A stretch of DNA of 64,000 nt from the IMG/VR virus record IMGVR_UViG_2778261505_000002; one strand, written 5' to 3'. Both the position numbers and the translations under genes were made by a program. The notes beneath the pieces are model-generated. The model was not told where the DNA came from and did not search any database. It saw only the letters and a program-made list of their open reading frames with translations. Below are positions 6,872 through 56,250 of the stretch, piece after piece (within the stretch, counting starts at the first letter, position 1; each line of letters begins with the position of its first letter). Source of the DNA: a virus (Duplodnaviria; Heunggongvirae; Uroviricota; Caudoviricetes).

Positions 6872-6880
6872 CTGAGAAGA

Positions 6881-6903
6881 GGGCCAGAAACGGCCCTTTC
6901 TCT
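6881..6903 (+). terminator. rho-independent terminator
   Basis: GGGCC-AGAAAC-GGCCC followed by TTTCTCT; loop itself resembles the iteron core. Confidence 0.6.
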
Positions 6904-6917
6904 ATAGCCACCAGCTG

Positions 6918-7000
6918 CCGCAGGGAAATTTTCAGAAACGGCGAGGAACGTATTCATGAGCCGACGGGGAACGGCCAGGATTTTTTCGGGAAACGGCTGC
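6918..7000. repeat. second iteron array, about four GGGAAACGGC-type repeats
   Basis: Copies at 6921, 6934, 6966, 6988 related to the 3738-3875 array. Confidence 0.5.
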
Positions 7001-7290
7001 ATTCGCCTTTGTGTAGAAAAAACATCGGGAAGCTGGTGGAATCCAACCAGCGGTTGTCGGACAGGTGAGCGGGGAAAATTATGATGACTTTCGTCACCTG
7101 AGACATCCAGATTTCTTTCGTAGCATAATCACATACGTGATTAAGTGGTGTGATTAAGTGAAAAATCACGCGCACATAATACGCGAGCGGATACAGAACA
7201 AAACAAAATGCCGATCCGCACCGACAAATAAACGCGGATCACATAGCAAGACTAAAAGCCAATGATTAACCATACTCTATAGCGCAATAT

Positions 7291-7482
7291 AACGCGTTTT
7301 AAGCGCGTTAATGTGTTAAGTAATGGGCATGTACTGGTAAGGATATAAAAGCGCGTCTATGGCGTTATTTTGGCGCTTATTTTTATGTTGTTGGAGTGAG
7401 TTAAAGACAATAAAAAACGCGCCATCAATGGCGCGTTATTGTGGAAGTATTGGAAACGAAAAAAGCGCCCATAGTGGGCGCT
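7291..7482. repeat. cluster of GC-rich palindromes in an AT-rich non-coding region
   Basis: AACGCG..CGCGTT at 7291, AACGCGCCAT-CA-ATGGCGCGTT at 7416-7437, AGCGCCCA-TAG-TGGGCGCT at 7464-7482; the last two are flanked by A and T runs (bidirectional terminator-like). Confidence 0.5.
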
Positions 7483-7487
7483 CGATT

Positions 7488-7718
7488 TTATTTGTGTAAA
7501 CTGATTTTAAATCCCATTTCTACGAACGCTTTTAACATTAAAAATATATCAGCGTCGTTCACGTCTGCTTTTTTTCGCTCCTGGTCGCTCAATAAGTCAA
7601 TTTTGCGCGTCGTTTCATCTATAAGCTCGACTGCGCGCCCAGCGTAACCAGCGATCCCAGCGATGCGATTAACATAATATTCATTATGGACGTTAACGCC
7701 AGCGATAAGAACAAACAT
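7488..7718 (-). CDS. hypothetical protein (76 aa)
   Basis: Last ORF of the leftward operon, followed by a hairpin terminator. Confidence 0.45.
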   Translation of the reverse strand: MFVLIAGVNVHNEYYVNRIAGIAGYAGRAVELIDETTRKIDLLSDQERKKADVNDADIFLMLKAFVEMGFKISLHK

Positions 7719-7739
7719 GATTAAGCTCCTTAAAAAAAA

Positions 7740-7943
7740 TTAAATAGAATTTTGAAGTTTTCCGATTAATGCGCTTAAGCGTAAGTATTCACGTTTGCGC
7801 TTGCAATCTCGCTTGCTGTTAAGCAAATCAGAAAACGTAAAATTTAATTGGTCGCGTTGCGCGATCAAATCGTCGATTAATTCCAGTTTATAAGCGCGAT
7901 AATTTGCGCGATATTCTGCGCGGATCTTGTCATAGCTGACCAT
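7740..7943 (-). CDS. hypothetical protein (68 aa)
   Basis: ATG with AAGGAG RBS; track ORF 7740-7988 trimmed. Confidence 0.45.
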   Translation of the reverse strand: MVSYDKIRAEYRANYRAYKLELIDDLIAQRDQLNFTFSDLLNSKRDCKRKREYLRLSALIGKLQNSI

Positions 7944-7960
7944 CTTTAAAGCTCCTTTAA

Positions 7961-7979
7961 AGCGCCCATTGTGGGCGCT
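7961..7979. repeat. palindrome AGCGCCCA-TTG-TGGGCGCT (third copy of the family)
   Basis: Same arms as 7464-7482; intergenic within the leftward operon. Confidence 0.5.
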
Positions 7980-7991
7980 TGATTCCATTAA

Positions 7992-8642
7992 TTACGCTTT
8001 AAAAGCATCAGCTAAATAATTGTAGAAATCATTCTTGATAAAGCGATATTGCTGTGTACCAGCTTTGGCGCTCCCAGCTCCTTTGACTTTTTCAACAAGT
8101 CCGAGACGTTCGCAAAGATTGATCAACTGGTTGGCTTGAGTATAGCCAGCGTCCAATTTAATTTCACACGCTTTTTTAGCTTCATTCATTAAATCGAAAA
8201 CAGCGCCATTGGTGAACGTGTCGATCTCGTCGTTAATCATATCGATTAAAGCGAATACACGAGATCCAGACATATCAGCGATGGAATAAATGCATTTACC
8301 AGATTTAATTGATTTAACCAGATAAACCAGTTTTTCCAGAGAATAACTATTAGTCATTGCATCACGAAAAAATACTTCTGGCGCTTGTTTGCTTGCTTTA
8401 ATCGCATAGTAGAAAACAGAGCACAATTTTTCGTCTTCTACAGCGTTTACAACGTTGTTGATGAAGTAAGCTAGTTTAGTGGTCGCAGCTTGCATATTTG
8501 CTTTGTCTGCTTTAGTGTGCGTACCATTTTTATAATGTTCGTTGTATGTTTGAGTTGCCAGATCTGCTTTTTCGCGCAGTTCATCGGATACAATGGAAGC
8601 AGCTTCAACGATGGATTTTTTAGAAATGATAATGTTAGCCAT
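7992..8642 (-). CDS. hypothetical protein (216 aa)
   Basis: ORF with AT-rich promoter region upstream (8643-8880); no motif recognised. Confidence 0.55.
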   Translation of the reverse strand: MANIIISKKSIVEAASIVSDELREKADLATQTYNEHYKNGTHTKADKANMQAATTKLAYFINNVVNAVEDEKLCSVFYYAIKASKQAPEVFFRDAMTNSYSLEKLVYLVKSIKSGKCIYSIADMSGSRVFALIDMINDEIDTFTNGAVFDLMNEAKKACEIKLDAGYTQANQLINLCERLGLVEKVKGAGSAKAGTQQYRFIKNDFYNYLADAFKA

Positions 8643-8883
8643 GATGATTTTTCCTTATGTAAATTTAAAATTTATTGTCGTTAGCGTCTTCGCTTTCGAC
8701 GAGTTCAATTATCGATATACGAAAAAAGATTGCAAGTGTTTTTTTAAAATTTTTTGCAGGGATGAAAGTCCTAGAAATAAAAGCGAGATCGTCGAAGGTG
8801 TTCCCTAAATAAATAATCGATTGCGGCTTTAGACCTTATATATATTTAGGTTATTTGATTTGTAGATATAAAGAAGTGATGTG

Positions 8884-8912
8884 AAAAATAATAACCGGAC
8901 TTAGCCGGTTAT
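8884..8912 (-). terminator. rho-independent terminator (minus strand)
   Basis: ATAACCGG-loop-CCGGTTAT hairpin with T run on the minus strand. Confidence 0.6.
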
Positions 8913-8925
8913 TAACCTTATAGAT

Positions 8926-9234
8926 TTATTGAACAGACTCTACAGCCTTACGATTGGTGTCAAATAGCGCATCAACGAACTGTGCCGATGACTCGCTAGA
9001 TTCGCAATCCAACATTGCCCGTTCTTCATTTGCCACTTTCTTACACAGTTCCACATTCTCGCCTATCGCTTTTCCTGCTTTTACGGCTGCCGAAAATTGA
9101 TACATGCAAACTGATACATTCTGAGACGTTGAGCACACGTCATTCATCAGCGACTGAATGACAGGCTTATAGTCCATTGCATTTGCTGCAACTGAGCAAA
9201 GTAAAAATAATGGTGGTAACAATATCGATTTCAT
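8926..9234 (-). CDS. small secreted protein with N-terminal signal peptide (102 aa)
   Basis: N-terminus MKSILLPPLFLLCSVAANA is a typical cleavable signal peptide. Confidence 0.5.
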   Translation of the reverse strand: MKSILLPPLFLLCSVAANAMDYKPVIQSLMNDVCSTSQNVSVCMYQFSAAVKAGKAIGENVELCKKVANEERAMLDCESSESSAQFVDALFDTNRKAVESVQ

Positions 9235-9237
9235 AAC

Positions 9238-9762
9238 TCAAAAAGGCAAAATTCGTTCAACCCAATCGAACAAAACAACTATTTTTCTACCGTTCTCGAC
9301 ACGTAGTGTAACCTGACAAGCATCTGCACCTGCTGACACCCCCTCAATTTCACGGCCATCCGCCATGTACACCCTTATAGATTTGTTTGCTTTGTAGGCT
9401 TGGTTGCAAATTGCAAAAAAATCGCGGCGTGATGGCCGATTATCGACATAATCAGGGTGAACTGTTAGTCGACCTTTGAAATCGTGAGCGATACTGTCAA
9501 CCACACCTGATTCAATTGTACTAATGCGTTCAAGTGGGAGCCTTATACGATTTTCTTTGTCAAAAGGGGCTGGGCAAAGGTCAACTTTGTTACGAGATGG
9601 CATGAGGCCATAAACGTACATGCAAAACGCCTGGCCATCTTCGAGAGTGACCCTTACAGGAATTTGTTCTCTGCGCCAGAACATCAGTAGTTTTTCAACG
9701 TTAGTGTAATCTCGCGGCCAGAGTTCAGCTTGGATACCGTAGGTAATATCTTTGGTTGTCAT
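9238..9762 (-). CDS. hypothetical protein (about 175 aa)
   Basis: Track ORF 9238-9840 trimmed to the ATG just downstream of the lipoprotein stop. Confidence 0.45.
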   Translation of the reverse strand: MTTKDITYGIQAELWPRDYTNVEKLLMFWRREQIPVRVTLEDGQAFCMYVYGLMPSRNKVDLCPAPFDKENRIRLPLERISTIESGVVDSIAHDFKGRLTVHPDYVDNRPSRRDFFAICNQAYKANKSIRVYMADGREIEGVSAGADACQVTLRVENGRKIVVLFDWVERILPF

Positions 9763-9766
9763 GTCA

Positions 9767-10189
9767 TCACAGAGTTGTTGGCAGAATGTCGATGTCACCA
9801 GAATTGCTGGTGAACACCCTGAACGCTTTTGTGTCTCCATTCTTCAGAGTCGTTTCTCGCTCTTGACGAGCGGGGTTTAGAGCACATAAACCTGCACCTT
9901 CAAGAGATGCACCCACAATTAATTCTCCGGCATTTAAATGGAAAGTCGCTTTTTCGCCTGTAGCCAGTTTTGCGACAGTTTCGCCGTTGATGAAAATGGA
10001 AGCATCACATCCAGCTCCTACAAAACCTGTGTCTCTCATTACCACCAACGTAGCTGGCGCTGCGCTTTGATACTTGAACACTTTGGCCTGCGGTGCTGGT
10101 TTGGCGTCATGGATTGATATTGGGCGTGATTGGCACGCGGTAAGCATCAACACTGGTAACGTTAGTAGAGGGAGAAGCGAGTATTTCAT
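9767..10189 (-). CDS. lipoprotein (candidate superinfection-exclusion factor)
   Basis: MKYSLLPLLTLPVLMLTAC signal with lipobox LTAC; function is inference. Confidence 0.5.
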   Translation of the reverse strand: MKYSLLPLLTLPVLMLTACQSRPISIHDAKPAPQAKVFKYQSAAPATLVVMRDTGFVGAGCDASIFINGETVAKLATGEKATFHLNAGELIVGASLEGAGLCALNPARQERETTLKNGDTKAFRVFTSNSGDIDILPTTL

Positions 10190-10257
10190 GATAGTTTTAG
10201 AACAGAAAGTGAACAGTATGGGAGACTTCATCTTTGTCTCCCTAATTGATAGCGTGA

Positions 10258-10536
10258 TTATTTTAATCTGCTTAATAGCGTTTCGAGATCTTCCTTTGTC
10301 ATATTAGAGTTCTCATAGATACGCATGATTTTCTCACGAGTCTTAGCGGAAGCCCCGACAGAAGATATAACCTTGTCAAAGTCGGCCATTGTCAATTGTT
10401 CCAGAATGGTATTTATGACTTCAGCCTTAGACATTTTGATATTTTTTTCTTTTAGTTTCACTTGAAACTTTCCAAGTTTGTCATTGGCCTTATCAGACAA
10501 TGCTACCTGACAGTAAGTTGTTTTCTTTTCACTCAT
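10258..10536 (-). CDS. small DNA-binding protein, ribbon-helix-helix-like (92 aa)
   Basis: beta-strand/helix pattern FQVKLKE...SKAEVINTILEQL compatible with an RHH fold. Confidence 0.4.
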   Translation of the reverse strand: MSEKKTTYCQVALSDKANDKLGKFQVKLKEKNIKMSKAEVINTILEQLTMADFDKVISSVGASAKTREKIMRIYENSNMTKEDLETLLSRLK

Positions 10537-10538
10537 AA

Positions 10539-12098
10539 CTAATCTCGTTTCAGAACTCCAAAATCGAATGCTCCATCAATAGGCAATACACCTTCTGCAA
10601 AGCCAGGTGTGGTGTCGATGATGTGTTTTCGCTCATAAGAGTGAGACAACAGGTATTTGTTGCTAATGTCAATGAAATCAGTGATAAAACACACGTTTGC
10701 CTGATTTTTTTTGGCTCGTAAGCCACGACCGACACGCTGTCTCATTTCAACTTCTGCTTTCCCACCACCAGCAAGAATGACCGCACCAACGCTTGGCACA
10801 TCAACACCAACATCCAGAATAGTCGAGCCTATTAAAACATCTATTTCACCAGACGCTAAACTATTCAGCTTTGCTTGCCTTGTCGTCTGGTTAGATTCCC
10901 CATAGATGAAATCAACTTTAAGACCTGACTCCTTCATCATCTCCATCAGGATTTGCCCGTGGCGTTTAAGACGAACCAGAGTCATGCAGTTGAGTGAATG
11001 TTGCTTATAAAGCAATGCCTCGCGCACTATGGCCTCGTTACGTCCCAAATTATACACGATCCCCAACTGATAAGCCTTTTGGTAGGCGGTGCTCATACCA
11101 ACTCTAAAATTGAGGTGTTTGTTGGCAAGTTCGGCCTTGATTCTGGCCTCGTCTGGCTTGTAGGCAACTTTATGATAAAGGAAGTACGGCTTTGCCAGAA
11201 TGCCTCGATCAATCAGGTACTTTTCTGTGACTTTAATTTCAATTCGCCCGGCCACCGCCATCAGGCGCATGTTGGCTTCCGTCGAATCCTTCATGAACGG
11301 CGTGGCTGTAAGCGCCAGACGATAGTCTGCGTTCACACATAATCTGGCAATGTCATAGAAATTAGAGCCTGAAGACTCATGCGCTTCTTCCAGAATAAGC
11401 AGAGACACACTTGAAAGGAAGCGTTTCACCAACTCCCGACGTTTGAGGTGGTAGCTCTTTTTATCTGGTGTTGCATCGCGTGGTGGTTCTTCAAGGAAAC
11501 TTGCCAGAGTTTGAACTGTAGCGACGTTGATATGTCGTGATACCTGGAACTCACCCGAGCCAATGACTCCAACCTTTTGGCCCTTTAACCACGGTTCGCC
11601 ATTTTCGGCGCGGTAGTCGATGGATCTCTGGAAGTTTTCGGCCATTTGAAACATCAGAACGGAGCGGGTTGTTAAAAATAATGTCATTCGACCGATACGT
11701 GCAGCTGCTTTGCAGGCAACGTTAGATTTCCCGCCACCAGTAGCGATCTGCGCAATCATCATTCCCTCTCGAACCAGTGTTTCCACAGTCTGATCCTGAT
11801 ACGCATAATCAGGATTGTATGGGAATGGGTTAACCGCAGGATTTGGTTTACCAAGCGCCGGGGCTTTGTCTTTGCGGATATGAACACATTTGATGCCCGC
11901 CTTGTTCAAGTTCGCCGCTACAGGCTTGGCAAAGCCAGCAGGGAACGAGTTTTTACTCCAGTTGAACATCGTGCTTGTGCCCTTCCAGTCGCCAGTCTCG
12001 ACTTCGTAGCTCAACATTTGCTGCACCAGTTGCTTTACCTTGTCATCTGCGCCAGAAATAAGCGCATTTACTGCGTTAGATACAATCCGAACAGTCAT
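10539..12098 (-). CDS. superfamily 2 helicase (DEAD/DEAH-like)
   Basis: Motif I ATGGGKS, motif II LEEAHE, motif III TATP, motif VI QRVGRGLR. Confidence 0.8.
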   Translation of the reverse strand: MTVRIVSNAVNALISGADDKVKQLVQQMLSYEVETGDWKGTSTMFNWSKNSFPAGFAKPVAANLNKAGIKCVHIRKDKAPALGKPNPAVNPFPYNPDYAYQDQTVETLVREGMMIAQIATGGGKSNVACKAAARIGRMTLFLTTRSVLMFQMAENFQRSIDYRAENGEPWLKGQKVGVIGSGEFQVSRHINVATVQTLASFLEEPPRDATPDKKSYHLKRRELVKRFLSSVSLLILEEAHESSGSNFYDIARLCVNADYRLALTATPFMKDSTEANMRLMAVAGRIEIKVTEKYLIDRGILAKPYFLYHKVAYKPDEARIKAELANKHLNFRVGMSTAYQKAYQLGIVYNLGRNEAIVREALLYKQHSLNCMTLVRLKRHGQILMEMMKESGLKVDFIYGESNQTTRQAKLNSLASGEIDVLIGSTILDVGVDVPSVGAVILAGGGKAEVEMRQRVGRGLRAKKNQANVCFITDFIDISNKYLLSHSYERKHIIDTTPGFAEGVLPIDGAFDFGVLKRD

Positions 12099-12162
12099 AA
12101 ACCTCTTTCCTTAGTGCCTTTTGTATGTTATTTGGCTATTATAATAAGTAAGTGATTACTTA

Positions 12163-12861
12163 GTGGATTGTAGCAATAAAATGGATGTAAAAATCACGAT
12201 TTTGCAGGTTGATGTTGCCAACCTTCGCCCGAATACCTGGAACACCAATTCGGTTGGTGCGCAGAATTTTGAAAAACTGAAAGGTTCTATCGAAAAATTG
12301 GGCTTTTTTAAGCCAATTTTGGCTCGTGAACTTGAAGATGGATTTTTTGAAATCCTCGGCGGCGAACATCGCTGGCGTGCTGCTATTGAGCAAGGAATTT
12401 CAACGGTTCCGGTGCTTTCTGTGGGCAAAATTAGCGATGTCGTAGCTAAACAGATGTCACTGGTGGACAACGAGCGATACGGTGAAGACGACCAAATCGC
12501 ATTGCAACGCTTCATTGAAGAAATTCAGTCAGAACTTGACTATCAACTGTCTGAAATCGCTCCGTATGACGACGAAATCTCGATGGTTTTAGCAAAAGAG
12601 GCGGCAATCGACCTTGAAGCACTGGAGGCGTTGTCTCGTGGTAGTGATGAGCCTGTCGATACCGACAAACGAGAGAAAACCGAACGTGTGGGTGCGGAAC
12701 ATCAGACCATGCGCTTCAAAGTAACTTTCGATGCGTCAGATCGTGTTGCAGAAACCATAAAAAACATCATCAAAGAGCAGGCTATTAACACCGGTAATGA
12801 AATGGAGAACGCTGGTGAGGCTCTGGTGTGGCTGGTCGACTACTACAAGGAGCGTATGTAA
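12163..12861 (+). CDS. ParB N-terminal-domain (ParB/Srx-fold) protein
   Basis: GGEHRWRAA resembles the ParB arginine-rich box; start could be 12181. Confidence 0.6.
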   Translation: MDCSNKMDVKITILQVDVANLRPNTWNTNSVGAQNFEKLKGSIEKLGFFKPILARELEDGFFEILGGEHRWRAAIEQGISTVPVLSVGKISDVVAKQMSLVDNERYGEDDQIALQRFIEEIQSELDYQLSEIAPYDDEISMVLAKEAAIDLEALEALSRGSDEPVDTDKREKTERVGAEHQTMRFKVTFDASDRVAETIKNIIKEQAINTGNEMENAGEALVWLVDYYKERM

Positions 12862-13529
12862 TGACCAAAAAGTTTGAAATCGTATATCGCGACCCGGCAG
12901 ATCTTATTCCCTATGAGATGAATGCCAAAAAGCATGATGAACAGCAGATCAGAGATCTGGCCGCAGCCATTAAAAAGCGCGGATTTGACCAGCCAATTAC
13001 GGTCGATAAGAACGACGTAATTATTACTGGCCACGGCCGCCGTGAGGCTGCAATTTTTGCTGGACTTGAGCGCGTACCGGTTATTGTTCGTGATGATCTG
13101 AGTGATGACGAGGTACGTGCAAAGCGCCTTGAAGATAACCGACTTGCCAGCATTGATTACGATGCAATTAAGCTACAGAAAGAGCTTGAGTCGCTTGTTC
13201 TGGACGATATCGAGGTTTTCGGCTTCGAAGAGCGTGAGTTGAATGTTCTCGTTGGCAGTATGACAGAAGAAATGGACACCGACTCGCTAGTTATCGATCT
13301 TGGCGAAGAAACTAAACGACAGAAGGATGAACACACCGAGATCAGTCGTGAAGTTGCAGCGGAAGAAGTACGTGTTGTCGACGTATTGGGCTTTAAAACG
13401 CTCCCTGCTGGCTCTGCCATTGTTGTTGGTGATTTGCTTGCCCACATGGAAGAAATGACGGGAGAAAGCGGGGTAGACGCATTTGTGGCATATGCGGAGA
13501 AGATCTCTTCCGGGGAGATGGCTGCATGA
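12861..13529 (+). CDS. second ParB N-terminal-domain protein
   Basis: GHGRREAA motif; ATG overlaps the upstream stop (TAATG). Confidence 0.6.
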   Translation: MTKKFEIVYRDPADLIPYEMNAKKHDEQQIRDLAAAIKKRGFDQPITVDKNDVIITGHGRREAAIFAGLERVPVIVRDDLSDDEVRAKRLEDNRLASIDYDAIKLQKELESLVLDDIEVFGFEERELNVLVGSMTEEMDTDSLVIDLGEETKRQKDEHTEISREVAAEEVRVVDVLGFKTLPAGSAIVVGDLLAHMEEMTGESGVDAFVAYAEKISSGEMAA

Positions 13530-14191
13530 GCAAATACATCATCAACGTATCGTTTCAGACACGCGTAAATAAAACCACGCGCACGTTGGAAATCGCTGAG
13601 TCGTTCGGGCTTGGCCTGGACGAAAAAGAGTGGACGCTTTACGACAATCTGGAGCTGGAAGTGAAGCAGGGCGATGTGGTGTACATCACCGGCCAATCCG
13701 GTTCCGGCAAATCCGTTGTGCTGCGCGAGTTGCAACGACAGATGAAGGATGAAGGGCTGTCTGTAGCCTCCATCGATGATTTTACCTTCGATAATGAGGT
13801 TAACGTCATCGATCAGTTGGGCAAAACGACCAGTGATGCGCTTGGGTTGTTATCTATGGCTGGTCTGAACGATGCATATCTGTTTGTTCGCAAGCCTTCT
13901 GAAATGTCAGACGGCCAGAAATATCGTCTCAAGATTGCCAAACTGATTGAGTCAGGCGCTAAAGTATGGGCTGCTGACGAGTTCGGCGCTGTTCTAGACC
14001 GTGTAACTGCTCAGGTTGTGGCGTCTAACCTCCAGCGTGCCGCTCGAAAGGTTGGTGCGACGGTAATGGTGGCGACGACTCACGAAGACCTGAAGAACGC
14101 GCTGCGCCCGGATATGCAGATCACCAAGCACTACAAAGAACGCGTGAAGGTGGAATATCACAATGGTAGTCATGATGAGGTCCATTCATGA
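13526..14191 (+). CDS. small ABC-type ATPase (nucleotide-binding-domain-like, 221 aa)
   Basis: Walker A GQSGSGKS, signature-like MSDGQ, Walker B VWAADEF, H-loop TTHE; ATGA overlap with upstream gene. Confidence 0.6.
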   Translation: MSKYIINVSFQTRVNKTTRTLEIAESFGLGLDEKEWTLYDNLELEVKQGDVVYITGQSGSGKSVVLRELQRQMKDEGLSVASIDDFTFDNEVNVIDQLGKTTSDALGLLSMAGLNDAYLFVRKPSEMSDGQKYRLKIAKLIESGAKVWAADEFGAVLDRVTAQVVASNLQRAARKVGATVMVATTHEDLKNALRPDMQITKHYKERVKVEYHNGSHDEVHS

Positions 14192-15078
14192 CGGACATCA
14201 TCATTAAACGCTACCGCCCTGAAGAGTTTCCGCGTCATCTGGACTTTCTGGAGCGAATGACTGTTACAAAAGGAACTGTAGAGGACTGGCACGCTCTTAA
14301 GTCGCTTCACTACAAAACAGACGGCAAACCTTTCGCGCCAACTTACTATCGCTGCGAACTTGATGACCGTCTGGTGGGCGTCGTGGTTATGGCTTACCCG
14401 AAACTACTGCTGGCACCTCGCCATCGCATGTTTCCTAAGTTGAAACCAACCACCAATACCACCGTGGCTAACCAGTACTGGGGCCGGTACGTGAATAACA
14501 ACTTTGCGGTGATCAGCCGCTCAGTCGTGGATACTCAGTACCGTGGCGTAGGCGTCTCTTATCGAATGATTAACCTGGTTAGCAGGATGCATGACCGGCC
14601 AATCATTGAGATCCAGTCATCGATGAGCAAATACAATCCCTTCGCCATGAAAGCAGGGTTTAAGTTCATCCGCCCTGAGCGACCGAAGAGCTATGAAAGT
14701 GCACTGCGTGTGTTCCAGCGCCATTTCCGCTCCGACCCGGGTGATAACGAGGCGATCGTCAAAGAGTTGTTCGCTATGAGCGAGTCTCGTCGTCGCCGTG
14801 CACTGCGTGATCTGGTGGCGGACTACCACAAGAACAGTTCCCTGGCAAAAGCTGGGCGGAATCGTGGCACGACGATTCAGGACATTGCCGACAGTCTGGT
14901 GGACGAGGCCAGCATTGTGAAGCTGCTCAAGGACATTCACAACCTGAGCTTTACGTCTCCGTTGTATGGTGTGTATCGAAACCCTGACTTTGGTCGTCGA
15001 CTGCCTGACACGCTGCCACTGCTGGCATTCGACAAACAACCTTTGGATAAACCGTTAGAAATTGCTTTACCGGCATAA
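14188..15078 (+). CDS. hypothetical protein with possible GNAT acetyltransferase-like core
   Basis: TQYRGVGVSYRMIN resembles GNAT motif A (R-x-x-G-x-G); weak. Confidence 0.4.
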   Translation: MTDIIIKRYRPEEFPRHLDFLERMTVTKGTVEDWHALKSLHYKTDGKPFAPTYYRCELDDRLVGVVVMAYPKLLLAPRHRMFPKLKPTTNTTVANQYWGRYVNNNFAVISRSVVDTQYRGVGVSYRMINLVSRMHDRPIIEIQSSMSKYNPFAMKAGFKFIRPERPKSYESALRVFQRHFRSDPGDNEAIVKELFAMSESRRRRALRDLVADYHKNSSLAKAGRNRGTTIQDIADSLVDEASIVKLLKDIHNLSFTSPLYGVYRNPDFGRRLPDTLPLLAFDKQPLDKPLEIALPA

Positions 15079-15087
15079 GGATTTGCC

Positions 15088-15354
15088 ATGACGTTAACCG
15101 ATAAACAAAAGGACATCATCAAAACGCTCAATCTCGGTTATGAGCGAGGTCATCTACTTGACCTGGACGAATTGCTTGAAGTTTTGCCGTACAAGACAAC
15201 CAAGCAAAGTATCCAGTTCTCAATTCGCGCTCTGATAAAAAAGGGGCTGGTGGAGAAAGGGCATACGCGCCAACGCAGTGACAATCGCTATCACCGCCGA
15301 ACTCTTGGGTTAACTACTTTAGGTCGAGCCAAAGCGAAGTTACTGGTGATGTAA
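15088..15354 (+). CDS. small winged-helix DNA-binding protein (88 aa)
   Basis: HTH-like segment TTKQSIQFSIRALIKKGLV; basic C-terminus. Confidence 0.4.
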   Translation: MTLTDKQKDIIKTLNLGYERGHLLDLDELLEVLPYKTTKQSIQFSIRALIKKGLVEKGHTRQRSDNRYHRRTLGLTTLGRAKAKLLVM

Positions 15355-15378
15355 TCGGTCTGGGAGCTTATTTAAAGA

Positions 15379-15433
15379 CCTGCTTCTGTATATATAAATA
15401 ATAAGTAACTTATTAAATATATACGGAAGCAGG
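15379..15433. repeat. 55 bp palindromic element, copy 1
   Basis: CCTGCTTCTGTATATATAAATAATAAGTAACTTATTAAATATATACGGAAGCAGG; near-identical copy at 47837-47891. Confidence 0.7.
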
Positions 15434-15468
15434 CTTCGTAAGACATGCCAGACCTAATTAAACACCCC

Positions 15469-15510
15469 AGAAAACAAGTTGGTTAGCAGATGCAGTAAAC
15501 AAGTTGTTTT
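15469..15510. promoter_or_regulatory. two tandem early-family dyads (AGAAAACAAGTTGGTT, GTAAACAAGTTGTTTT)
   Basis: Upstream of terminase small subunit gene. Confidence 0.45.
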
Positions 15511-15549
15511 AGAGCGCATGGACGCGCTCTGTGTGTTTTAGAGGGATCT

Positions 15550-16182
15550 ATGACGGTCGAAAAAGACGAGGTAAAAACTCGCCTGACACCAGCGGAGTGG
15601 GCCGAAGCTGAAGCCAAATGGACGTCAGGCGAATATACACTCTCAAAGCTGGAGGAAGAGTACGGCATTCGTCGTGAAACACTCTCCAGACATTTCAAAA
15701 AGCGAGGATTAGAGAAAGGCGCGGACTCTGTTGGGAAGATGGTTCGTGAGTCTCTTAAATCTGACGCAGAGCTTCGCGCTAAAGCCCGTGCGGAAAAGAT
15801 AGAAGAACGTCGTACACGTTATGACGGCTGGGCGTATGCGTTGGGGCAGATGGTGATGGTCGAAGTCACTACGGCCAAACGTGAGGGTAAGCCTTTAGGG
15901 GCGATTGAGGATTCTCTCAAGAGCTTACAGAGAGCCAGTAATACCCTTGCAAAATGCTTTGAAGTTTCGTCCAAAGCATTGGGCATGGATCATGCGGAAA
16001 ATGACGAGGAAGAAATTCCGAACCTGGTATTTGGTGAGCTTACGCCTTCCCAGGTGGCGAAATTACGTCAGGAAGACGACGAGCCTGAAATCATCGATGA
16101 CGAATTGCTTGAGACGTTGGAAGAAGAAGCTCTAAGCGAATTTGATGCGACAGATGATGGAAGTGAAGGGGAGGACGAATAA
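15550..16182 (+). CDS. terminase small subunit (putative)
   Basis: N-terminal HTH, acidic C-terminus, directly upstream of and overlapping TerL. Confidence 0.55.
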   Translation: MTVEKDEVKTRLTPAEWAEAEAKWTSGEYTLSKLEEEYGIRRETLSRHFKKRGLEKGADSVGKMVRESLKSDAELRAKARAEKIEERRTRYDGWAYALGQMVMVEVTTAKREGKPLGAIEDSLKSLQRASNTLAKCFEVSSKALGMDHAENDEEEIPNLVFGELTPSQVAKLRQEDDEPEIIDDELLETLEEEALSEFDATDDGSEGEDE

Positions 16183-55699: not shown

Positions 55700-55774
55700 G
55701 ATGGTGTAGCTCAGCGGTAGAGCAGTTGGCTGTTAACCAACTGGTCGGTGGTTCGAATCCACCCACCATCGCCA
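55700..55774 (+). tRNA. tRNA-Asn (anticodon GTT)
   Basis: Cloverleaf folded by hand: 7 bp acceptor, D arm, anticodon loop CTGTTAA, T loop TTCGAAT, 3' CCA encoded. Confidence 0.85.
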
Positions 55775-55779
55775 ATTTA

Positions 55780-55866
55780 GGGGAGTTAGTCCGTAGAGGT
55801 AGCGGTGTAGACTGTAAATCTACTGTCATTGCGACTCGGGTGGTTCGACTCCATCACTCCCCACCA
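55780..55866 (+). tRNA. tRNA-Tyr (anticodon GTA), long variable arm
   Basis: Acceptor GGGGAGT/ACTCCCC, anticodon loop CTGTAAA, T loop TTCGACT, CCA encoded. Confidence 0.85.
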
Positions 55867-55870
55867 AATT

Positions 55871-55946
55871 GCCGGTTTAGCTCAGTTGGTAGAGCGCCTG
55901 CCTTGTAAGCAGGATGTCAGCGGTTCGAGTCCGTTAACCGGCACCA
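55871..55946 (+). tRNA. tRNA-Thr (anticodon TGT)
   Basis: Acceptor GCCGGTT/AACCGGC, anticodon loop CTTGTAA, T loop TTCGAGT, CCA encoded. Confidence 0.8.
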
Positions 55947-56163
55947 ACACAACAGGAAAGAGCATTGAAAACCGCCGAGACTGCCCTGTTTTAAGCGTAA
56001 GTCCGTGCAAACGTCATACAGTGCTCTTTTCGTTGTGGTTGATGCGCAGACTGATGCGCGGAAAGAAATGCCCCAGCGACACACGAGGCGAGTTCACACA
56101 CTGCAATGCAGTCAGTAGCCGGGGTCGCTAAGCCGGAGATCAGTACCGGTAACCACAACAATT

Positions 56164-56250
56164 GGAGAGTAGGGAGCATGGTGCTCAAGCGGTCTTGAAA
56201 ACCGTCCCATTGTGCAAGCGATGATGGTTCGATTCCATTACTCTCCGCCA
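56164..56250 (+). tRNA. tRNA-Ser-like (anticodon TGA), atypical D arm
   Basis: Acceptor GGAGAGT/ACTCTCC, anticodon loop CTTGAAA, long variable arm, T loop TTCGATT, CCA; D arm non-canonical. Confidence 0.55.

Follow-up and report, generated by a model that had tools for sequence, protein, structure and literature searches.

Positions 7488 to 12098 of the window (the whole analysed stretch of 64,000 nt) hold a leftward array in which a gene for a DNA helicase lies with genes whose products are predicted to reach the cell envelope. A sequence-only reading had proposed a single operon in which superinfection-exclusion or defence functions ride with a replication or recombination helicase. We think it probable that the locus is a helicase arm made of two units which carries, together with envelope cargo, an FljA-like repressor acting on an mRNA leader, for which the fliC leader is the sole precedented target and a further or different target is likely.

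The helicase arm and its transcription units

Judged by its sequence, the element is an SSU5/pHCM2-type phage-plasmid of E. coli: the window shares 99.7% identity with Escherichia phage CMS-2020a, 93% with Cyrano, and 80% with SSU5. The region is the leftward arm that adjoins the packaging module. Eight ORFs, all on the minus strand, fill the stretch, and each one (8/8) matches a PHROG family at E<=1e-39, so that the genes listed by the earlier reading are real and its coordinates stand. Eleven loci, among them pMT1 of Y. pestis and three Klebsiella lineages, have the same gene order, and the genes are under purifying selection (dN/dS 0.03-0.11 wherever measurable). The block is conserved, has been sequenced before, and belongs to a known and mostly ordinary element. 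Among plasmids, we found 1002 matches to the helicase (~820 of them close), 835 to the FljA homologue, 421 to the lipoprotein, and 259 to the secreted protein. The features of the region are the following:

12138..12143, minus strand: candidate promoter of unit 1, a perfect TATAAT -10 hexamer read from the sequence
12098-8926, minus strand: unit 1, encoding the helicase, its 92-aa partner p92, an outer-membrane lipoprotein, the FljA homologue, and a secreted protein with four Cys
10539..12098, minus strand: SF2 DNA helicase, 519 aa, with an XPB/UvsW/RecG-like core; core gene (Pfam DEAD, ResIII, Helicase_C)
10258..10536, minus strand: p92, small basic protein, pI 9.4, coupled to the helicase (phrog_1466)
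9767..10231, minus strand: predicted outer-membrane lipoprotein, 154 aa (140 aa if the start is the ATG at 10189), with a lipobox; accessory cargo (phrog_890, 'lipoprotein')
9238..9762, minus strand: FljA-family protein, 174 aa, predicted tandem Hfq/Sm-like fold (Pfam PF03614)
8926..9234, minus strand: predicted secreted acidic protein, 102-aa precursor with a signal peptide, an ANA cleavage motif, and four Cys in the mature part; accessory
8889..8914, minus strand: intrinsic terminator closing unit 1, a 10-bp stem followed by UUUUU
8708..8735, minus strand: promoter of unit 2, TTGCAA-16 nt-GATAAT, from the consensus scan
8642-7488, minus strand: unit 2, with its own conserved promoter, encoding p216, p67, and p76, none with an assigned function
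7992..8642, minus strand: p216, core protein without assigned function (phrog_1513)
7961..7979, minus strand: intergenic GC-rich hairpin in the gap between p216 and p67, followed only by UUU and then by the p67 ribosome-binding site
7740..7943, minus strand: p67, small basic coiled-coil-like protein, 67 aa (phrog_6145), with an AAGGAG ribosome-binding site 5' of 7943
7488..7718, minus strand: p76, small protein without assigned function (phrog_1585)
7416..7483, minus strand: two tandem intrinsic terminators closing unit 2 (7483-7463 and 7437-7416, each with U6)

The single leftward operon proposed earlier is split by the terminator at 8914-8889 and then by the promoter at 8735-8708, each conserved in seven lineages. 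We therefore predict two leftward transcription units, because the terminator and promoter calls are conserved across lineages. The folding energy of the 8914-8889 terminator is -12.6 kcal/mol (z = -4.0), and in the L014 lineage changes on both sides of the stem keep the pairing. In the unit 2 promoter, the CTTG ... TCGATAAT blocks are invariant in the seven lineages. The TATAAT hexamer of unit 1 sits in a 64-bp divergent gap common with the ParB-like/terminase operon, and the hexamer and a leader of ~35 nt are kept in seven lineages; its -35 is weak, and the consensus promoter scan gave no call at this site. The gene junctions of the region show translational coupling, and gaps of only 2-4 nt separate helicase from p92, lipoprotein from FljA homologue, and FljA homologue from secreted protein, which bears out the earlier proposal that the helicase is co-transcribed with envelope-targeted proteins. 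Unit 1 is made of three core genes (helicase, p92, and FljA homologue) and two swappable accessory genes placed between or after them.

We define an intrinsic terminator as a GC-rich hairpin directly 5' of a U-tract. Such an arrangement is found at 7483-7463 (U6; -15.5 kcal/mol, z = -4.0), at 7437-7416 (U6; -16.8 kcal/mol, z = -4.6), and at 8914-8889 (U5), but not at 7979-7961, where the hairpin is followed by UUU only. The internal GC-rich hairpins to which differential expression had been attributed are present exactly at 7464-7482 and 7961-7979, where they share one 19-nt palindrome, a pair that was reproduced in 0/100 shuffles, and they fold with about -15 kcal/mol (z = -3 to -4). The 7961 hairpin also falls within a 31-nt direct repeat whose other copy is 7462-7492. 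However, the hairpin at 7464, together with its U6, is a terminal terminator and not an internal element, and thus an effect on differential expression is plausible only for the one at 7961, which may act as a leaky terminator or as a transcript stabiliser. The latter is intergenic because the 82-aa ORF downstream truly starts at 7943, giving the 67-aa p67; the phrog_6145 alignment begins at residue 16 of that ORF.

Among the unit 2 products, p216 (dN/dS 0.03-0.11) has ~100 homologue clusters, all of them unnamed, carried on ~105-115-kb contigs, and found only in these phage-plasmids, and it gave no Pfam, NCBIfam, or PDB match. The label 'MIT family metal ion transporter' that p67 bears in SSU5 and in PHROGs is most likely a misannotation; in a comparison with Cyrano, the gene stands out as a clean indel. 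Cyrano and loci L006, L007, and L013 have the p76 gene, and SSU5 lacks it.

The clear helicase motifs of the earlier reading are indeed present in the translation (I, IATGGGKS; II, LILEEAHE; III, LTATP; VI, QRVGRGLR), and the Pfam DEAD, ResIII, and Helicase_C models all match above their cut-offs, which places the protein in SF2. It also matches phrog_16, 'DNA helicase' (E=2e-93), and its nearest solved structures are XPB, Rad25, UvsW, and RecG. From its family membership, the helicase would have a role in replicating or recombining the element. The ATG of p92 lies 2 nt past the helicase stop, a spacing that indicates translational coupling between the two genes. Conservation of this small protein extends to a Klebsiella lineage that is only distantly related (hhalign probability 97.5%). 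It had been called an RHH protein, and residues 6-47 do have a sequence pattern compatible with a strand-helix-helix (RHH-like) fold; however, no RHH family was found in Pfam for any of 8 orthologues at E<=10, and the PDB profile search returned only designed repeat proteins and no RHH, so that the label is unsupported.

The FljA homologue and its possible targets

The gene that had been listed as a 175 aa unknown encodes an FljA homologue whose true start is at 9762, giving 174 aa. It is the most informative gene of the block, and the sequence-only reading overlooked it. The protein matches PF03614 (Flag1_repress) with 281.7 bits against a cut-off of 24 (E=2.5e-84), over profile positions 1-170 of 170, and a distant Klebsiella orthologue still scores 92.7 bits. 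It shares 34% identity over 175 columns, at full length (E=4e-36), with Salmonella P0149, named 'phase 1 flagellin gene repressor FljA' by NCBI. The motifs common with FljA are DI(T/S)YG..AE(L/I/V)WPRDY at the N-terminus and PSRRD(F/Y)F and FDWV.RI at the C-terminus. Its predicted structure is a tandem of two Hfq/Sm-like domains, showing the N-terminal helix followed by the five-strand, strongly bent sheet that characterize the Sm/Hfq fold, and this model fits an mRNA-binding translational repressor. The Providencia homologues carry the NCBI name 'RNA chaperone Hfq'. The Hfq sequence models were not reached (Pfam Hfq, 19.1 bits vs 27; TIGR02383, E=0.073). The protein is modelled as a cytoplasmic RNA-binding regulator, neither an envelope nor a replication protein.

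FljA is the Salmonella protein by which flagellin synthesis is silenced. Members of its family block the translation of fliC mRNA, and a plasmid carrying fljA(z66) renders E. coli non-motile (PMC2652032). By analogy, the homologue would bind an mRNA leader and block its translation, as FljA does on fliC mRNA, and where the host is flagellated, as E. coli is, the only precedented target would be the flagellin (fliC) leader. Flagellin synthesis would then stop when unit 1 is expressed, and no other flagellin would take over, since we found no flagellin gene in the 64-kb window (tblastn with E. coli FliC, best E 0.41).

Nevertheless, fliC may not be the sole or main target, as the distribution of the gene indicates. 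Enterobacterial SSU5-like elements, ~345 Klebsiella plasmids included, carry the FljA homologue as a core gene, and it is intact in 345/346 helicase-bearing Klebsiella plasmids and in 62/62 Y. pestis plasmids. K. pneumoniae and Y. pestis are non-motile. Since the gene is conserved in non-flagellated Klebsiella, a further or different target is probable. Between Klebsiella backbones with 98% identity, its alleles diverge by 30%, which one would not expect if the protein acted on a host leader that is conserved. A further point against the fliC reading is that we found no sequence in the window resembling the fliC leader. In addition, S. Typhi CT18, which carries pHCM2, is still H-typed. Other carriers of such elements also remain H-typed, e.g., ETEC O169:H41 (PMC8085198), and therefore flagellin is not silenced constitutively.

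The same observations lend themselves to another explanation, which we regard as possible, if tentative: the FljA homologue would regulate the phage-plasmid itself, either as a leader-binding translational repressor of the mRNAs of the element, with a logic comparable to that of T4 RegA, or in the control of lysis/lysogeny or copy number. Selection would then not have been for an effect on flagellin, and the chromosomal FljA would have arisen from this group by domestication. The fixed position of this core gene next to the helicase in all the enterobacterial lineages examined, the three Klebsiella lineages among them, the purifying selection on it (dN/dS 0.08-0.11), the absence of a partner flagellin gene, and the H-typeable carriers are all in its favour, as is a rough NJ tree that puts Salmonella FljA among branches borne on ~105-112-kb contigs. 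However, the analysis yielded no candidate target, differences between FljA alleles are not mirrored in the p216 leader, and fliC is the target of every characterised family member (PMC2652032). Moreover, the Acinetobacter relatives have the helicase without the FljA homologue, so the basic life cycle does not need it.

Envelope proteins in a cargo slot

In the reading that we prefer, i.e., an FljA-like leader repressor accompanied by envelope cargo, the two remaining products of unit 1 are the cargo. The lipoprotein recognized earlier by its lipobox LTAC could be confirmed: its signal peptide ends in a lipobox of the form [LVI][ASTVI][GAS]C, the lipobox Cys33 is invariant in 13/13 homologues, with LSAC, ITAC, LTGC, LVGC, and LSGC as equivalents, two further Cys are also invariant, and the +2 residue is Q or S. 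The structure model of the lipoprotein was too poor for use. The signal peptide recognized in the other protein likewise holds, with its ANA cleavage motif (the sequence reads MKSILLPPLFLLCSVAANA, then MDYK), and the Klebsiella orthologue, although different in sequence, keeps the signal-peptide character. Compared with Cyrano, this gene is a clean indel, and its product belongs to no family in Pfam, PHROGs, NCBIfam, or PADLOC besides phrog_9536.

Between p92 and the FljA homologue lies a hot spot for cargo, a slot in which different lipoproteins or secreted proteins recur (Cyrano, L007, and L012 and L013 of Klebsiella). From their sequences, the lipoprotein and the secreted protein appear to be genuinely envelope-targeted and accessory, in a recombination hot spot, and nothing in their homology makes them ordinary replication accessory proteins devoid of envelope function. 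They would be typical lysogenic-conversion cargo.

A more specific version of this explanation, compatible with the preferred reading and in our view unlikely, is the one put forward originally, that both proteins provide superinfection exclusion or another anti-phage envelope function within the helicase operon. It has precedents in Llp of T5 and Cor of phi80/N15, outer-membrane lipoproteins that block FhuA. The two proteins here are predicted to be truly exported and are accessory, and different lipoproteins or secreted proteins recur in the slot. However, neither resembles any PADLOC model or any annotated exclusion family of Pfam or PHROGs, and neither has a functional family in Pfam, PHROGs, or NCBIfam, the only hint being a weak DUF2846 match (Pfam) under threshold in 10/13 homologues of the lipoprotein. 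The envelope cargo of temperate phages has, in addition, many other roles (serum resistance, adhesion, lysis control), and the idea as first proposed is left unsupported.

That the helicase and its neighbours form a Dnd/Pbe/Dpd-like system of anti-phage defence is very improbable and close to refuted. In its favour, the PADLOC PbeA models (E=1e-22) and NCBIfam dnd_restrict_1 (E=4e-16) match the helicase, and ParB-like genes adjoin the block. However, these matches are confined to the generic SF2 core and lie far under the family cut-offs (59 vs 600 bits), PADLOC found no further component of such systems, the ParB-like genes run straight into terminase and packaging genes, and the helicase is a core gene conserved at 93-99% identity across SSU5-like loci, not cargo.

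Comparison with known systems

The closest counterparts of the block are SSU5_119-SSU5_124 of Salmonella phage SSU5 and their equivalents in pHCM2, pMT1, and Cyrano, which are orthologues in the order helicase, p92, lipoprotein, 'putative repressor of phase 1 flagellin', p216, and a small gene, Cyrano having other cargo in place of the lipoprotein. In contrast to these, our window has the extra gene for the secreted 102-aa protein and both p67 and p76.

Like T4 UvsW, archaeal XPB, and RecG, the helicase has two RecA-like domains with motifs I, II, III, and VI, but it scores far under the NCBIfam equivalog cut-offs (XPB, 49.9 vs 610 bits; RecG models, 21-29 vs 659-995 bits) and its N-terminal 95 aa have no match. 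With Llp and Cor, the lipoprotein has in common its small size, its phage origin, a predicted outer-membrane location, conserved Cys pairs, and its place as accessory cargo, whereas no sequence or profile similarity to them was detected.

Unlike Hfq and the bacterial Sm-like proteins, the FljA homologue has two Sm-like domains per chain, so that a six-domain Hfq-like ring would need three chains. It resembles FljA of Salmonella enterica in being homologous over its full length, in size (174 vs 179 aa), and in the motifs in common, and it resembles FljA(z66) of the S. Typhi plasmid pBSSB1 in being borne on a mobile element. It differs from Salmonella FljA in sharing only 34% identity with it and in having neither a partner flagellin gene nor an invertase; it is embedded in a phage-plasmid helicase operon, next to a lipoprotein and a secreted protein, and it is a core gene, non-flagellated hosts included.

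Phage-plasmid context and transcription units

Over its whole length, the 4.8-kb region under study shares 99.7% identity with Escherichia phage CMS-2020a, against 93% with phage Cyrano and 80% with Salmonella phage SSU5. Because of this identity, and because terminase, portal, tape-measure and tail genes and a four-tRNA cluster are found elsewhere in the window, the sequence is assigned to an SSU5/pHCM2-type phage-plasmid of E. coli. The tRNA cluster is located at 55700-56250 (Asn-GTT, Tyr-GTA, Thr-TGT and Ser-TGA), and Rfam confirms three of its members. Clinical E. coli, Klebsiella, Enterobacter and Salmonella commonly harbour such phage-plasmids, and the group includes pMT1 of Y. pestis; to our knowledge, their non-structural genes are almost entirely uncharacterised. 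The gene block is real and correctly placed; it belongs to a known element, and relatives of that element have already been annotated in the same way. Public records place two contigs of this enterobacterial type, L007 and L008, in MAGs named 'Bacillota bacterium' and 'Candidatus Fimivivens', and assign a chimeric FljA-like protein (P0079) to Gemella morbillorum, probably as a result of contamination in binning or assembly.

The leftward block (7488-12098) is filled by eight minus-strand ORFs, each matching a PHROG family (E<=1e-39), and the structural observations of the sequence-only reading were largely right. That reading had taken the block for a single operon, which is wrong, since a conserved terminator and promoter split it into two units. 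Proteins p92, p216, p67 and p76 are named by their length in amino acids.

10539-12098, minus strand, SF2 helicase, opening unit 1 (12098-8926); followed by p92 and the lipoprotein gene
9762-9238, minus strand, FljA homologue; followed by the gene of a secreted 102-aa protein
8914-8889, minus strand, terminator of unit 1 (hairpin plus U5)
283-bp AT-rich spacer, minus strand, promoter of p216 (TTGCAA-16-GATAAT)
7992-8642, minus strand, p216, opening unit 2 (8642-7488)
7740-7943, minus strand, p67
7488-7718, minus strand, p76
end of unit 2, minus strand, two tandem terminators, the first being the hairpin at 7464

Within unit 1, the helicase/p92, lipoprotein/FljA and FljA/secreted protein junctions measure 2-4 nt. 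Its terminator and the promoter of unit 2 are both conserved in an alignment of seven lineages, and in the most distant of them the pairing of the terminator stem is kept despite changes on both sides.

Two hairpins had been described as internal, at 7464 and 7961. Both are present exactly there, fold at about -15 kcal/mol and have in common a 19-nt palindrome that no shuffle reproduced. The PHROG alignment places the true start of an 82-aa ORF at 7943 (67 aa, p67), behind an AAGGAG site, and thus the 7961 hairpin is intergenic. The description therefore holds for the 7961 hairpin, which precedes p67, but not for the 7464 hairpin, which belongs to the end of unit 2. In the former, no more than three U separate the stem from the p67 ribosome-binding site; it is not a canonical terminator, and could attenuate transcription or stabilise the transcript.

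The small genes p67 and p76 are cassette-like: relatives have one or the other and the window has both. An identical AAGGAGCTT ribosome-binding site lies ahead of each gene, within a 13-nt repeat (7723-7735 before p76, 7949-7961 before p67), and a 31-nt direct repeat containing the terminator hairpin (7462-7492 and 7959-7989) brackets the pair, an arrangement suggestive of cassettes having been shuffled through recombination at these repeats. The label 'MIT family metal ion transporter (CorA)' given to p67 (SSU5, phrog_6145) is probably a propagated misannotation, since the protein has 67 aa, is basic and contains no hydrophobic segment. Protein p216 belongs to the core of these elements, is highly conserved and has been found nowhere else; it matched nothing in Pfam, NCBIfam, PADLOC or the PDB profiles, and none of its approximately 100 homologue clusters bears a name. 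Beyond unit 2, about 600 bp between convergent genes (6872-7487) hold no supported gene and at least five terminator-like hairpins, and are partly conserved in Klebsiella elements. Rfam returned nothing at gathering score in the region, Hfq-binding sRNA matches being sub-threshold only; those at 7402-7486 reflect just the tandem terminators.

Helicase, divergent operon and cargo genes

The helicase motifs reported from the sequence are clear in the 519-aa protein (I GGGKS, II EEAH, III TATP, VI QRVGRGLR), which matches Pfam DEAD, ResIII and Helicase_C. Its nearest solved structures are XPB, Rad25, T4 UvsW and RecG, and its scores against NCBIfam equivalog models were all far under the cut-offs. 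A part in a defence system was rejected, as the PbeA, Dnd and Dpd matches span the generic SF2 core only. Between lineages, the helicase proteins are 93% identical (dN 0.045-0.064) despite synonymous sites so saturated that dS is not computable, a combination indicating that the lineages separated very long ago and that purifying selection has been extreme.

A gap of 64 bp (12099-12162), which includes the helicase leader, separates the helicase gene from a divergent ParB-like gene. This gap is better conserved than the coding DNA on either side, and remains so in L014, the distant Klebsiella lineage. It contains the conserved blocks ACAATCCA, CTTACTTA, a perfect TATAAT and AAGGCACNAAGGAAAG, and may be a shared operator or translational control site. 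The divergent operon (12163-16182) leads into the large terminase gene and encodes two tandem ParB-N proteins, two ATPase-like proteins and a DNA-binding protein. Its features, directly upstream of the large terminase, include:

within 12163-16182, ABC-type ATPase
within 12163-16182, 296-aa protein (phrog_886, no Pfam match)
within 12163-16182, DNA-binding protein

The ParB-N/ATPase arrangement before the terminase suggests a packaging-linked role rather than plasmid partition.

The p92 protein is the conserved, fast-evolving partner of the helicase (41-86% identity), recognisable by hhalign in the distant Klebsiella lineage. It had been labelled an RHH protein, and the sequence pattern of residues 6-47 does have a strand-helix-helix-like look, but neither Pfam, with all 8 orthologues scanned, nor a PDB profile search gave a match that would sustain the label.

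Both envelope-directed proteins have the signals ascribed to them. The lipoprotein contains the lipobox LTAC; an alignment of 13 homologues shows three invariant Cys, that of the lipobox among them, and Q or S at residue +2, from which the usual sorting rule predicts the outer membrane as its destination. Only a sub-threshold DUF2846 match was obtained, with 10 of the 13 homologues. In the 102-aa protein the signal peptide ends in ANA, and the Klebsiella orthologue differs in sequence while keeping the signal-peptide character and four Cys of the mature part. With 421 plasmids encoding the lipoprotein and 259 the secreted protein, versus about 820 with a close helicase, both are accessory. The secreted-protein gene corresponds to a clean 311-bp indel relative to Cyrano, ending just before the terminator. 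The slot between p92 and FljA is occupied in Cyrano by a 266-aa lipoprotein on the opposite strand and a 199-aa protein, in L007 by a 196-aa signal-peptide protein, and in the Klebsiella locus L012 by a 145-aa lipoprotein in reverse orientation. Thus, the observation that envelope proteins ride with the helicase is correct, and the association is recurrent with other cargo in the slot, but its extension to exclusion or defence found no supporting match: PADLOC recognised neither the lipoprotein nor the secreted protein. An exclusion role is a reasonable guess, to which we give a low probability.

Apart from the orphan core FljA-type protein, the only part of some wider interest, the block (helicase, cargo lipoprotein, secreted protein and small unknowns) is ordinary phage-plasmid content.

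Identity and distribution of the FljA homologue

An ORF finder extends this gene to 200 aa, overlapping the lipoprotein gene; ATG 9762 is where every homologue and both the Pfam and the PHROG alignments begin, and from there the protein has 174 aa. It had been listed as a 175-aa unknown, yet it matches end to end Pfam PF03614 ('repressor of phase-1 flagellin', E=2.5e-84), and the SSU5 record already labels its counterpart 'putative repressor of phase 1 flagellin'. Only 29 representatives of the family turned up among 1.84 billion cluster representatives searched; one of them is a Salmonella cluster with the NCBI name 'phase 1 flagellin gene repressor FljA'. The window protein shares 34% identity over the full length with Salmonella FljA (E=4e-36), including N- and C-terminal motifs.

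The AlphaFold model, built on 12 homologues (pLDDT 77, pTM 0.78), consists of two consecutive units, each with one helix and five strands. Because of this two-unit model, of sub-threshold Hfq matches in Pfam and NCBIfam, and of the name 'RNA chaperone Hfq' that NCBI gives to the Providencia homologues, we regard it as a tandem Sm-like, predicted RNA-binding protein. Sequence similarity between the two halves was not significant, and a viral structure search with the model returned no full-length tandem match. The most conserved part of the family, the N-terminal DITYG..AE.WPRDY motif (residues 1-19) common to Salmonella FljA, is predicted to be disordered (pLDDT 31-57); it may be an RNA or partner contact site.

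The gene is core. By tblastn it is present in 835 PLSDB plasmids and follows the helicase genus by genus (FljA homologue/helicase: Klebsiella 345/346, Escherichia 229/228, Enterobacter 92/92, Yersinia 62/62); its dN/dS is 0.08-0.11, and the order helicase, small protein, FljA-like protein and p216 holds even in the distant Klebsiella lineage. Of 5426 complete E. coli genomes, 117 contain the lipoprotein-FljA-secreted protein block, every time on a plasmid. Two Klebsiella elements (among the loci L012, L013 and L014) share 98% identity as far as the end of p92 and 93% from p216 onward, and inside these near-identical backbones their FljA-like genes are 70% identical in DNA and their cargo is unrelated; cargo and FljA gene thus seem to be exchanged as one block. 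The Acinetobacter relatives (153 plasmid records; locus L015, A. baumannii pCMCVTAb1-Ab66) encode a helicase of 42% identity whose divergent ParB-like/ABC-ATPase neighbours are the same, without a FljA homologue, p216 or a detectable p92. Therefore, the FljA gene is an Enterobacterales-specific addition and not part of the basic life cycle. In a rough NJ tree, Salmonella FljA falls among branches on contigs of phage-plasmid size.

Target and origin of the FljA homologue

Leader binding with translational repression is the predicted mode of action and is well supported by homology and fold. The tandem Sm-like reading fits the reported action of the FljA family, whose members keep fliC mRNA from being translated; E. 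coli with an fljA(z66) plasmid becomes non-motile (PMC2652032). Our literature search found no paper connecting SSU5, pHCM2, pMT1 or phage-plasmids with fljA. Flagellin would be the target in E. coli with a chance a little under even. A core, selected flagellin-repressor homologue would let these elements change host motility, and could affect H-antigen expression, recognition by TLR5 and susceptibility to phages that depend on the flagellum.

We are cautious about this target because of the core status, dN/dS, block exchange, Acinetobacter absence and NJ tree, and because of several further observations. No flagellin partner gene was found within the 64-kb window. K. pneumoniae and Y. pestis are non-motile, and therefore flagellin cannot be the target in those hosts. 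Carriers of such elements are still H-typed, e.g., ETEC O169:H41 (PMC8085198). When the promoter, leader and first 60 nt of fliC from E. coli K-12 were compared with the window by blastn-short, chance matches alone appeared (best E 0.5). The p216 leader was discarded as a sequence co-varying with the FljA allele, being 93% identical between two Klebsiella elements with 70%-identical FljA.

That the protein acts on another target, possibly one on the element, also comes close to an even chance. If the target is on the element, the protein would represent a small, barely studied class of phage-encoded Hfq-like regulators and a hint at the origin of Salmonella's phase-variation repressor. A more far-reaching proposal, tentative and well short of even, is that the FljA-type tandem-Sm protein is primarily a phage-plasmid riboregulator, an Hfq-like ring former silencing host or element mRNA, and that Salmonella FljA was recruited from such an element. 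If so, a mobile post-transcriptional silencer would be present on widespread plasmids (the 835 in PLSDB, and those in 117 of the 5426 complete genomes of E. coli), and one of its effects would be that flagellated hosts lose the flagellin H antigen, a TLR5 ligand, and the receptor of flagellotropic phages. A parallel for such a recruitment is the Hin invertase, which is related to phage invertases.
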